DNA of 57,763 bases, from sequence record SRR22947727_1950; one strand, given 5' to 3'. The position numbers and the translations under genes were made by a program. Of the stretch, positions 10,294 to 57,763 are shown in pieces (within the stretch, counting starts at the first letter, position 1; every line of letters starts with the position of its first letter). Under the pieces are notes generated by a model. That model was given only the letters and a program-made list of their open reading frames with translations. It made no database searches and was not told the origin of the DNA.

Positions 10294-10929
10294 ATGCAGG
10301 TGCACGTAGCGGATCACCCCCTCATCTCCCACAAGCTCTCGGTTTTGCGAGATGAGACAACACCCTCTCCGGTTTTCCGTGCACTCACATCAGAGCTCGT
10401 CACCCTCCTCGCCTATGAGGCGACCCGTCACATTCGGGTGGAAGATCACCAGATCACGACCCCGGTGACCACCACCACGGGCAAGAAGCTGGCGAAGCCA
10501 CGACCCGTTGTCGTACCCATCCTCCGAGCTGGGCTCGGGATGCTGGAGGGCATGACCCAACTGTTGCCGAGCGCCGAGGTGGGCTTCTTGGGCATGGTGC
10601 GCGACGAGAAGACGCTGCAACCGAGCGTCTATGCAGAGCGTCTCCCTGAGGACCTCTCTGATCGGCAAGTCTTCATTCTCGATCCCATGTTGGCCACCGG
10701 TGGTTCGCTGCTGCAGGCCATCAACTACGTCTTTGACAAAGGCGCCACCGAAGTAACGGCGGTGTGTCTCCTCGGCGCGCCAGAAGGACTTGCGGCCCTG
10801 GAAGAAGCCACCAAGGGGCGCAACGTGACAATCGTGTTGGGGGCTCTCGATGAGAAACTCAACGAGCACGGCTTCATTGTTCCGGGCCTCGGTGATGCCG
10901 GTGACCGACTCTACGGAACTGTCGGATAA
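10294..10929 (+). CDS. upp: Uracil phosphoribosyltransferase
   Basis: [36 protein letters not shown] at 10294. Confidence 0.97.
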
Positions 10930-10940
10930 CGTCATACGAC

Positions 10941-10970
10941 TTGACGCTCCACCCAGCATGGCCCGATAAT
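10941..10970 (+). promoter_or_regulatory. Sigma-A promoter producing a leaderless transcript that starts at the poly-Cys uORF
   Basis: TTGACG-N18-GATAAT, then 6 nt to ATG at 10977. Confidence 0.7.
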
Positions 10971-10976
10971 CAAGCC

Positions 10977-11048
10977 ATGCAGAGCTCTCGTGTCACCCTG
11001 GTGCCCGCGGGTATCCGTGGCCTCTGTTGCTGTCGAATGTGTGGCTAA
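10977..11048 (+). CDS. Cysteine-rich leader peptide (uORF), 23 aa
   Basis: MQSSRVTLVPAGIRGLCCCRMCG*; 4 Cys in the last 7 codons; Cys codons complementary to 11080-11096. Confidence 0.75.
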   Translation: MQSSRVTLVPAGIRGLCCCRMCG

Positions 11049-11098
11049 TCCCCCGTTCACCGTCCTTGAGCCCTCTGCCCCTCACGAATCGACAGATT

Positions 11099-11698
11099 AT
11101 GACAACCTCTCCTCGCGAACCACGAGGGTTCGCCCTCTATGTGGGTATCACTGAAGCTGATGCCCAGGCGGCGGGCATCAGCCTGCAGCAACTCGTCACC
11201 GACCTCAAGAAGACCGTGACAGATCACGTCCCGGGGACGGAAACCCACGCTGCTATCGCTCTAGCGCCCCTCGGTGCTGGCGGTAAGCACCTCGACATTG
11301 TCCGCATGGCTCTGCACGACCCCATCGCCCTCGGGAAGCTTGCGAAGGACGCTAAACCACAGGATTCCGAGGTTGTCATCGACATTTCCCGGAAGCGGGT
11401 TCTGATTGATGATGAGCAAGCGCCGCTCACCTACAAGGAGTTCGCACTCTTGCAATTCCTTGTCTTGCGCGAAGGGCAAACGGTAAACCGCGAGGTGATC
11501 ATTGAAGCATTGTGGGCGGAGGGAGACGAGGATGCTCCAGTCGCTCGCACCATCGATGTCCACGTTCGCAGGTTGCGATCAAAGCTCGGTCGCTACGAGG
11601 ACATCGTCCGCACCGTCCGAGGGGTTGGGTACCGCTTTGACCGTCACGCTGATGTCACCATCAACTACGGTGTTGCCCAGTCTCCCGACATGATTTAG
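11099..11698 (+). CDS. Orphan regulator with OmpR/PhoB-type winged-helix DNA-binding domain and non-receiver N-terminus
   Basis: LTYKEFALLQFL…RTIDVHVRRLRSKLG…IVRTVRGVGYRF; no recognisable receiver domain; ATG 11099 preferred over tracked TTG 11027. Confidence 0.9.
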   Translation: MTTSPREPRGFALYVGITEADAQAAGISLQQLVTDLKKTVTDHVPGTETHAAIALAPLGAGGKHLDIVRMALHDPIALGKLAKDAKPQDSEVVIDISRKRVLIDDEQAPLTYKEFALLQFLVLREGQTVNREVIIEALWAEGDEDAPVARTIDVHVRRLRSKLGRYEDIVRTVRGVGYRFDRHADVTINYGVAQSPDMI

Positions 11699-11724
11699 GG
11701 CGTTTTTCCGCAGAAAAACAGCCC
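11698..11724 (+). terminator. Stem-loop after the regulator gene
   Basis: GGGC-GTTTTTC/CGCA/GAAAAAC-A-GCCC inverted repeat; no strong U tail. Confidence 0.5.
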
Positions 11725-11726
11725 AC

Positions 11727-11761
11727 TAGACACCGTTACCATTCTGTTATATATTCGTCAC
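11727..11761 (+). promoter_or_regulatory. Promoter overlaid by three 11-bp-phased direct repeats
   Basis: TAGACA-N17-TATATT; GTTAC(11735)-N6-GTTAT(11746)-N6-GTCAC(11757). Confidence 0.65.
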
Positions 11762-11864
11762 ATCGTCAGTTGTTTGCTGTGACAGCTCTCGTAAATGTGA
11801 TTGCAAGACACTCTTGGTGCAAGGGAATAGGGCCGGTCGCTCGCCTCAGCGGCCGGCCCTTATC
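11762..11864 (+). ncRNA. Candidate ~100-nt small RNA
   Basis: Own promoter upstream, no credible ORF, 13-bp GC-rich hairpin at 11829-11860; the next gene has its own -10 (TACGCT). Confidence 0.55.
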
Positions 11865-11909: not shown

Positions 11910-13283
11910 ATGACTTCTGGGCCTGCCATCGTGTGGTTGCGAAACGATCTCCGACTCCACGACAACCCCGCTCTTGATGCAGCGGTAGCCACGGGTGAAC
12001 CAGTTCTCATCGTGTATGTCCGGGATGAGGTGACCCCCGGTTCGCGTCCGCTCGGGCGAGCATCACAGTGGTGGCTTCACCATTCGCTGACCACTCTGCG
12101 CACCTCCATCGAGGCTCTCGGGGGCTCGCTGGTCCTCCGCACGGGATCGGGTCCCGATGTCATTCGAGAACTGGTGGCAGTGACCGGTGCGTCGGCAGTG
12201 TTCTGGAATCGACGCTATGGAATCGCGCGCGAAGCCGACGCTCTCCTGAAGGAGTCGCTCCGGGGAGCAGGTCTCACCTGTGAGAGTTTTGCCGGCAACC
12301 TCCTCTTTGAGCCTTGGACTGTTCGTACCGGAGAGGGAAACCCCTTCAAGGTTTTCACCCCTTTCTGGCGAGCAGCCCTCGCCGGTGAGCCACCACGCAC
12401 CCCGCTCGCGGCCCCCACAGCACTGCGCGCGCCGGAGGGTGTGCCGAGCGAGAACGCCGAAGACTGGGATTTACTCCCCACCAGTCCCGATTGGTCGAAC
12501 GGCCTTCAGGACATGTGGACCCCCGGTGAAGCCGGCGCCCACCAACGGCTCGAGGATTTTGTCGAGAACACGCTGAAGCTCTATCACCGACGGGATGAGC
12601 CGGGCCCGGTCACGACCTCGCGCCTCAGCCCCCACCTCAGTTTTGGGGAAATCAGCCCCCATCAGATTTGGGCGGAACTCGATCGCTCTCTTCCCGCCGA
12701 GGCAGAAAAGAACAAGGCCAAGTTCCTCTCCGAAGTGGGATGGCGGGAGTTTTCCTACAACATCCTGTTTCACTTTCCCGAGCTTGATACGAAGAACTTT
12801 CGTGCCGAGTTTGATCACTTCCCCTGGGGAGACGTTGATCCAGCGTTGCTGAAGGCTTGGCACAGAGGCACAACGGGAGTTCCCCTGGTGGATGCTGGAA
12901 TGCGGGAGCTGTGGCACACCGGTTATATGCATAACCGTGTGCGCATGGTGGTCGCCTCGTTCCTGATTAAGAACATGCTGGTCGATTGGCGTGTGGGTGA
13001 AGCCTGGTTCTGGGACACCCTCGTCGATGCCGACGAGGCCAATAATCCCGCAAGCTGGCAGTGGGTGGCCGGTAGCGGTGCAGATGCTGCCCCCTACTTC
13101 AGAGTGTTCAACCCGATGTTGCAAGCTGAGAAATTTGATCCCCAGCAGGACTACATCCGACGGTGGATTCCCGAGTACGGAACCCCTGACTACCCCAGTG
13201 AGCCAATCATCGACCTCAAAGCCAGTAGAGATCGAGCGCTCAGAGCGTTCGACGAGCTCAAGGCCTTGCGCCAGCCTTCGTAA
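11910..13283 (+). CDS. phrB: Deoxyribodipyrimidine photolyase (cryptochrome/photolyase family)
   Basis: WLRNDLRLHDNPAL, TSRLSPHLSFGEISP, GYMHNRVRM, WQWVAGSGADAAPYFRVFNP. Confidence 0.93.
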   Translation: MTSGPAIVWLRNDLRLHDNPALDAAVATGEPVLIVYVRDEVTPGSRPLGRASQWWLHHSLTTLRTSIEALGGSLVLRTGSGPDVIRELVAVTGASAVFWNRRYGIAREADALLKESLRGAGLTCESFAGNLLFEPWTVRTGEGNPFKVFTPFWRAALAGEPPRTPLAAPTALRAPEGVPSENAEDWDLLPTSPDWSNGLQDMWTPGEAGAHQRLEDFVENTLKLYHRRDEPGPVTTSRLSPHLSFGEISPHQIWAELDRSLPAEAEKNKAKFLSEVGWREFSYNILFHFPELDTKNFRAEFDHFPWGDVDPALLKAWHRGTTGVPLVDAGMRELWHTGYMHNRVRMVVASFLIKNMLVDWRVGEAWFWDTLVDADEANNPASWQWVAGSGADAAPYFRVFNPMLQAEKFDPQQDYIRRWIPEYGTPDYPSEPIIDLKASRDRALRAFDELKALRQPS

Positions 13284-38596: not shown

Positions 38597-38686
38597 TGGC
38601 GGTACCGGTGGGATTTGAACCCACGGTGGGCTTTCACCCACACAACTTTTCGAGAGTTGCACCTTCGGCCGCTCGGACACGGTACC
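38597..38686 (-). tRNA. tRNA-Ser(CGA)
   Basis: GGTACCG/CGGTACC acceptor stem, CT-CGA-AA loop, long variable arm, GGTTCAAATCC, encoded CCA. Confidence 0.96.
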
Positions 38687-57614: not shown

Positions 57615-57690
57615 GGCCCCATCGTTTAGTGGCCTAGGACGCCGCCCTTTCACGGCGGTAGCACGGGTTCGAATCCCGTTGGGGTCACCA
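57615..57690 (+). tRNA. tRNA-Glu(TTC)
   Basis: 76-nt cloverleaf, CT-TTC-AC loop, GGTTCGAATCC, encoded CCA. Confidence 0.97.
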
Positions 57691-57707: not shown

Positions 57708-57763
57708 GGCCCTGTAGCGCAGTTGGTTAGCGTGCCGCCCTGTCACGGCGGAGGTCGCGGGTT
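57708..57763 (+). tRNA. tRNA-Asp(GTC), truncated by window end
   Basis: GGCCCTGTAGCGCAGTTGGTTAGCG…CT-GTC-AC loop…GGTT. Confidence 0.95.

Follow-up and report, generated by a model that had tools for sequence, protein, structure and literature searches.

Within a 57,763-nt stretch of DNA from sequence record SRR22947727_1950 (hereafter the window), the locus studied here (10,941-11,864) is probably an undescribed, conserved sulfur-amino-acid module built of known types of parts, with an adjoining undescribed small RNA that is probably wired separately. Judged from sequence, we lean towards a circuit in which a GlnR-related regulator, attenuated through its leader, would activate genes of methionine synthesis and uptake by way of a box with a 10-bp period. 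The same locus is found, with 99% protein identity, in G001, the genome nearest to the window, and homologues and RNA-bearing contigs have names that identify the family concerned (f1) as Microbacteriaceae. The upstream gene, upp (uracil phosphoribosyltransferase; 10294..10929, + strand; PF14681, NF001097), is a conserved neighbour outside the circuit: most loci with enough upstream sequence show it 5' of the regulator, and regulator members from each of the families f8, f9 and f21 likewise stand behind it.

A leader rich in methionine and cysteine precedes the regulator

A sigma-70-type promoter for leader and regulator (10941..10970, +) has its -35 element at 10941-10946 and its -10 element at 10965-10970; promoter-like sites number 2 per 3 kb, compared with 0.7 +/- 0.7 in shuffled sequences. 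The leader ORF (10977..11048, +) opens with an ATG at 10977, 7 nt behind the -10, matching the transcription start predicted from promoter geometry. Its 23 codons translate to MQSSRVTLVPAGIRGLCCCRMCG, with four Cys, three of them consecutive, and a single internal Met, and promoter geometry, in the window as in most of the family, predicts that it is leaderless.

The initial annotation had described this element as a leaderless poly-Cys uORF, a reading that holds across the family with the correction that the leaders are Met-rich too. We sampled 80 of the 149 genomes carrying the regulator (the 30 best matches, 10 more with RNA loci reaching the regulator and 40 mostly from the weak end) and defined a leader as an upstream ORF with at least four Met or Cys in its last 15 codons, using the reverse strand as control. 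By this rule a leader precedes the regulator in 75/80 Microbacteriaceae genomes, compared with 5/80 for the control, and a -35-like word stands 35-38 nt 5' of the start codon in 63/75. Three or more internal Met occur in 72/75 leaders and three or more Cys in 57/75, with two or more consecutive Cys codons in 52/75.

The end of the leader is highly constrained. Arg-Met is found near the end of 70/75 leaders, the Arg being encoded by CGA in 70/70, against a background of 96 CGA among the 1632 Arg codons of the regulator genes, and in 67/70 the pair falls four codons before the stop. The resulting Arg(CGA)-Met-x-x-stop ending (11034..11048, +) is the sole such site within the window. Distant leaders share their Met/Cys composition and little else, several of them lacking the Arg-Met ending, and this likeness in composition alone argues for codon sensing rather than for a peptide product. 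Among f8, f9 and f21, 13/20 loci pass the leader rule, and f21 carries poly-Met leaders. Within the f21 series L160-L165, loci L160, L161, L163 and L165 combine a poly-Met leader and the conserved ending with a divergent orthologue whose N-terminal domain was missed by the family profile.

The ending is also found before metY in families without a regulator match, at 14/40 loci compared with 0/84 control upstream regions and 0/40 reverse strands, which provides independent support for the leader reporting methionine status. On these sequence patterns, the leader very probably senses sulfur amino acids, and Met is likely to be the signal at least as much as Cys. The leaders before metY are mostly 7-8 codons long (L392, L398, L405, L465, L466, L471, L473, L474, L386, L393, L394, L397, L399 and L402); the seven-codon versions hold a single internal Met, and 9/14 lie directly behind a SAM-IV-like motif, with which they possibly form a tandem of riboswitch and ribosome sensor. 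A bolder proposal, which we regard as unlikely, is that Arg(CGA)-Met-x-x-stop would be a portable Met-sensing ribosome switch of Actinomycetales, placed on metY in some families, often in tandem with SAM-IV, and moved here onto a GlnR-derived regulator in which a new domain replaces the receiver. The product would be a GCN4-like sulfur master switch with the adjacent RNA as its post-transcriptional arm.

Of the five sampled genomes that did not pass the leader rule, G015 offers no upstream DNA, and the other four are small genomes without a leader (G010 at L067, G030 at L066, G074 at L025 and G104 at L084) that form natural controls for its role; in G030, the regulator start overlaps the end of upp. 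Both G010 and G030 have lost the leader and retained the regulator and the metY box, indicating either that the leader is dispensable or that the N-terminal domain of the regulator gives a second input.

Polycysteine leaderless sORFs such as Ms5788A and Rv2334A are described as attenuators of mycobacteria in parts of bioRxiv 10.1101/834739, and Cys leaders appear likewise in passages of PMC1262725. The leaders here resemble the mycobacterial sORFs, as those parts present them, in being leaderless, in carrying consecutive Cys near the stop and in coming first in a sulfur-linked transcript. Unlike them, they are also Met-rich, bear the Arg(CGA)-Met-x-x-stop ending and stand before a transcription factor, whereas the gene behind the leader in the mycobacterial systems covered there encodes an enzyme or transporter.

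Attenuation at the leader

We propose that the leader would set the amount of regulator through ribosome-read attenuation. When charged tRNA-Met and tRNA-Cys are ample, the ribosome would complete the leader and depart, Rho would load on the C-rich spacer and transcription would halt; a ribosome stalled on the last leader codons would let transcription proceed, and a shortage of Met or Cys would in this way yield more regulator. The spacer (11049..11098, +), a candidate Rho loading site, is C-rich and G-poor, its 50 nt including 22 C and 8 G. C exceeds G in 70/70 spacers, at a C/G ratio of 1.82 versus 0.98-1.38 in control leaders. In the window, the stretch from the leader to the regulator gene yielded no intrinsic terminator.

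We also considered folding around the ribosome-binding site (RBS). In the predicted fold for the window's genus, nucleotides 11089-11095, just 5' of the regulator start, can pair with the Cys-Arg codons of the leader, and in 27/70 predicted folds, those of the window's genus among them, leader and RBS region are paired. A simulated stall, however, freed the RBS in only 3 of the 70 leaders and hid it in 4/70, and in G001 it lowered predicted RBS access from 0.47 to 0.38. RBS masking as a general mechanism was dropped as unsupported, and in this predicted respect the leaders differ from Ms5788A. Because the C-rich spacer is general and RBS masking is not, Rho-dependent attenuation is favoured over masking; a C-rich spacer is weak evidence for Rho, and we regard the matter as evenly balanced. 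Rho has been proposed for Cys leaders in passages of PMC1262725, where the prediction is called weak.

The leader might instead work without tRNA charging or Rho, either as an arrest peptide, with free Met, Cys, homocysteine or SAM stalling the ribosome on Arg-Met-x-x-stop, or by RBS masking of the Ms5788A kind. The fixed distance from Arg-Met to the stop, the invariant CGA and the seven-codon single-Met versions before metY, together with their frequent position behind a SAM-IV-like motif, are what an arrest peptide would lead one to expect, but several distant leaders keep their Met/Cys richness without the ending. For masking, the pairing of the RBS region in a minority of folds is offset by the simulated stalls, and we consider either of these mechanisms quite improbable.

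The regulator is a receiver-less relative of GlnR

The gene behind the leader (11099..11698, +) encodes an OmpR/PhoB-type regulator of 199 aa, whose only Pfam match is the winged-helix Trans_reg_C domain (PF00486, E 8e-22, residues 106-180), with fold matches in agreement. No receiver domain (PF00072) was detected in the regulator at E 0.1, and the model of its N-terminal domain gave no receiver-like match. The view that a receiver-less OmpR-type regulator lies directly behind the uORF was borne out. The regulator is present in 149/151 Microbacteriaceae genomes (E <= 1e-30), nearly always as a single copy. An order-wide sample placed it in 10/10 genomes of Microbacteriaceae, 9/9 of f8, 9/9 of f9 and 7/8 of f21, and it was absent from 115 genomes of 17 other families (E <= 1e-28). 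A few genomes carry a second, more distant copy at 46% identity (G145:C1:438690-439226 and G102:C20:11530-12138).

By sequence and by fold, the DNA-binding domain is closest to that of GlnR, the orphan OmpR-family nitrogen regulator of actinomycetes (best matches PDB 8HIG, 8HML and 8HIH), and its recognition helix is near-identical to that of GlnR. In a tree of 21 rows, the 15 regulator members formed a clade of their own (support 98/99) that excluded the single GlnR in the tree, and GlnR came out as their sister group in this small tree (89/83, not starred). Unlike GlnR, the regulator lacks the GlnR_1st domain (PF21695), which is present in G001 at locus L002, and its predicted box has a period of 10 bp rather than the 11 bp seen at glnA. 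That the regulator is simply the family's GlnR was ruled out, as G001 encodes a true GlnR and an MtrA in genes of their own. The N-terminal domain (approximately residues 5-80) is conserved and was modelled from 92 sequences with a pLDDT of 88.6; a fold search with this model returned no clear match, the best (Z 3.0) being MinE-like, and an Atlas search likewise gave none that was usable.

A 10-bp box marks methionine genes

The metY promoters of Microbacteriaceae contain a direct repeat whose period is 10 bp. We built a box matrix on 28 of them and applied a threshold score of at least 10, which detected the box in 27/28 training promoters (26/28 with leave-one-out), in 8/8 held-out promoters of the same family and in 6/7 from f9. 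In families without a regulator match, 0/21 and 1/20 metY loci scored (1/41), while glnA gave 3/30, cysK 3/26 and shuffled sequences 0-7%. The box lies 30-32 nt 5' of the -10 element in 34/35 cases, and this placement just upstream of the -35 is the position of an activator. In G001, the metY promoter reaches a score of 17.5, and the gene after metY encodes an alpha/beta hydrolase and resembles metX.

Boxes were also detected at 14/16 metQ promoters, 5/21 metQ loci having been omitted as apparently inside operons, and at 2/4 sir operons. The regulator's own promoter carries one in 17/61 loci, mostly reversed over the -35 and recurring in both Microbacteriaceae and f9; the corresponding promoter in the window scores 8.1. 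Applied genome-wide, the loose matrix performed near control level, and a search for the box plus a -35 pattern gave 15 matches in 10 genomes, compared with 3 in the control, of which 7 were at metY and 1 at metQ.

These results suggest that the 10-bp box is likely to be the activating site of the regulator, the link between the two being a correlation across related, non-independent lineages. We consider it probable that the regulator would bind the box just 5' of the -35 and activate metY-metX, metQ and some sir operons, and that it would repress its own promoter in some genomes. The initial annotation had raised a possible sulfur regulon, to which the predicted boxes at metY, metQ and some sir operons give content. 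It had also named cysteine as the signal; the leaders are indeed Cys-rich, but Met is likely to be at least its equal, and the box is placed at metY and metQ and not at cysK.

One could equally accept the leader as a sulfur sensor and assign the metY/metQ box to GlnR, MtrA or some further factor, with the targets of the regulator elsewhere. Its half-site is similar to the motifs of GlnR and MtrA, related genomes do not count independently, and the two families f8 and f21 carry the regulator while fitting the matrix poorly at metY (1/7 and 0/6, respectively); f8 mostly keeps SAM-IV there, and f21 shows a variant repeat by eye. Set against this are the 10-bp period, one base pair shorter than that of the GlnR box at glnA, the absence of the box from 40/41 metY loci in genomes without a regulator match, and its recurrence at the regulator's own promoter in two families, and we judge another owner of the box to be rather improbable.

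Two candidate targets were set aside during this analysis. A sir-promoter box at L557 was dropped since the gene encodes an ABC ATPase, and cysK, which appeared box-like by eye, was dropped on its matrix result. No sir gene was found within the 5 kb covered at three other cysD loci, and a cysD match occurred in just 8/61 of these genomes. A search for metE yielded two loci.

Relation to known systems

The SAM-IV riboswitch (RF00634) controls metY too in related families, where an Rfam match was obtained at 8/20 loci tested, but the motif is absent from all 28 Microbacteriaceae metY upstream regions, which carry the protein box in its place; in f8, SAM-IV and the regulator occur together. The locus accordingly offers a candidate sulfur regulator for Microbacteriaceae, along with its input and its binding box, in a family whose metY genes have no SAM-IV motif (0/28).

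In whiB7/wblC of actinobacteria and in yeast GCN4, the amount of a transcription factor depends on how ribosomes progress along an upstream ORF. We propose that uORF-set abundance would similarly replace phosphorylation here, so that an OmpR-type DNA-binding domain has apparently been rewired from phosphorylation to ribosome control of its amount. Unlike in those systems, sulfur amino acids would be the specific signal, and the protein family is unrelated. The leader ending is widespread and may be a new methionine sensor.

No description of the regulator, the box, the leader ending or the RNA was found in openly searchable full text, and the sORF tables of bioRxiv 10.1101/834739 could list similar leaders. 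Likewise, no Met/Cys regulator was described for Microbacteriaceae in the literature searched, most subscription papers being outside its scope.

A conserved small RNA with its own promoter lies behind the regulator

A hairpin at the regulator stop codon (11698..11724, +; z -3.5), not conserved in sequence, is possibly a terminator. It is followed by a promoter (11727..11755, +) with its -35 at 11727-11732 and its -10 at 11750-11755, whose spacer contains an 11-bp-period direct repeat (11734-11750). A hairpin and then a repeat-covered promoter had been predicted and both are present, but of the three GTnAC-type half-sites proposed, GTTAC at 11735 and GTTAT at 11746 are conserved and GTCAC at 11757 is not.

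The conserved non-coding RNA (11762..11864, +) consists of a 5' hairpin with a conserved loop (11773-11781), a near-invariant core (11796-11824) and a terminator-like hairpin (11828-11862). The unit as a whole (from about 11762) folds with a z of -3.8 and its last hairpin, of 13 bp, with a z of -5.4, in keeping with the earlier view of a non-coding unit of about 100 nt ending in a strong hairpin. The 29-nt core occurs once each in 107/151 Microbacteriaceae genomes with 0 control matches, and a covariance model matched 126/150 (123 at E < 1e-7), leaving 24 without a match. Outside the family this model gave 3 weak matches among 140 genomes, and no convincing match in the regulator-bearing families f8, f9 and f21. 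In 57 aligned RNAs, double changes were found in 9/10 pairs of the 5' hairpin and in 12/13 of the terminator; the middle helix barely varies and is therefore uninformative on covariation. A consensus fold pairing the 5' loop with the core was rejected, as it showed almost no covariation and the 5' hairpin covaries instead. The RNA matched no Rfam family, either at the gathering score or at E up to 5, and so represents a family-wide small RNA missing from that collection.

Among eight RNA-library runs, two have contigs ending at 11763-11764 and a third has one ending at 11758, a weak hint of the 5' end. Runs X2 and X14 cross the 5' end of the RNA and X10 has a gap there; such contigs show neither level nor strand. 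Two other identities were discarded: as coding sequence, the Cys-containing frame seen in the window is interrupted in relatives by stop codons and indels, and a role as leader of the next gene is unlikely because that gene varies and marR has its own -10.

Because the initial annotation had the regulator binding the 11-bp repeats and controlling the RNA, we compared the two kinds of promoter. The 11-bp repeat pair is present in 158/159 RNA loci, with a second, inverted pair upstream in 67/159. On the sulfur-box matrix 0/53 RNA promoters scored (48 distinct sequences), and on the 11-bp model 0/28 metY promoters did so. The RNA is on the same contig as the regulator in 99/107 genomes and behind it on the same strand in 98/99, but the distance is 400 bp or less in just 37/98 same-strand cases, with a median of about 1.8 kb and a range up to 38 kb. 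Behind the RNA stands marR in 77/116 loci, with its own -10 word in the loci examined. Given the 11-bp period, the absence of matches to the matrix, the variable distance and the tie to marR, the RNA is probably not under the regulator. Leader and regulator are conserved behind upp; the RNA has no convincing match in f8, f9 and f21 and is often kilobases away.

The predicted binding site in the RNA promoter fits the published MtrA consensus and differs from the GlnR box at glnA. Parts of PMC5650626 and PMC13718301 give the MtrA box as two imperfect direct repeats of 5-6 bp, which in the former are five bases apart, with one site over the -10 region. MtrA is the foremost candidate for the binder, though we hold this tentatively, since cell-wall hydrolase promoters of Microbacteriaceae carry the repeat just sometimes and the support from them is thin (M23 peptidase 3/20, NlpC/P60 2/8, dacB 0/20). 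Binding by the leader-controlled regulator is doubtful, and GlnR and some other factor are each less probable still. The 11-bp repeat was seen before the hydrolase genes at L652, L658, L660 and L112 (M23 peptidase) and at L349 and L355 (NlpC/P60), and most of 30 Microbacteriaceae glnA promoters (L289-L318) show canonical paired GlnR boxes.

A full cascade would have the leader-controlled regulator bind the 11-bp repeats as well and use the RNA as the post-transcriptional arm of the sulfur response. The consistent position of the RNA behind the regulator, directly so in the window, the GTTAC half-site common to the sulfur box and the RNA promoter, and a GlnR-like recognition helix, with GlnR boxes at glnA having an 11-bp period, all agree with it. 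Yet the period is 11 and not 10, neither model recognizes the promoters of the other, the spacing reaches tens of kilobases, and the RNA has no convincing match in three regulator-bearing families and none in 24/150 Microbacteriaceae genomes. In addition, predicted pairing of the RNA with metY, cysK, glnA and leader regions was not above that of shuffled sequences, and the cascade appears unlikely. We favour instead a separately promoted transcript that would share the neighbourhood and most likely act in trans by means of the conserved loop and core. Sequence-predicted traits of a trans-acting sRNA (own promoter, terminator and covarying structure) are present, and no recurring target emerged from 39 seed loci in 5 genomes or from four sets of 5' regions.

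Several arrangements of the locus were noted besides. In some genomes, including Cryobacterium, the RNA is inverted and faces the regulator (L051 in G090, L187 and related loci), and in some Microbacterium records and G289 there are two copies 1.3-10 kb apart (L174, L198, L199, L244, L245, L570 and L575). The marR gene (e.g. L012:2568-3008, and many other loci) is often leaderless by promoter geometry, and in loci lacking the RNA it comes after the regulator. In the window, the place that marR usually occupies in relatives is taken by a DNA photolyase gene (11910..13283, +), identified by a domain match. Elsewhere in the window there are three tRNA matches, at 38600-38686 (-), 57615-57687 (+) and 57708-57763 (+), the last being truncated by the window end.
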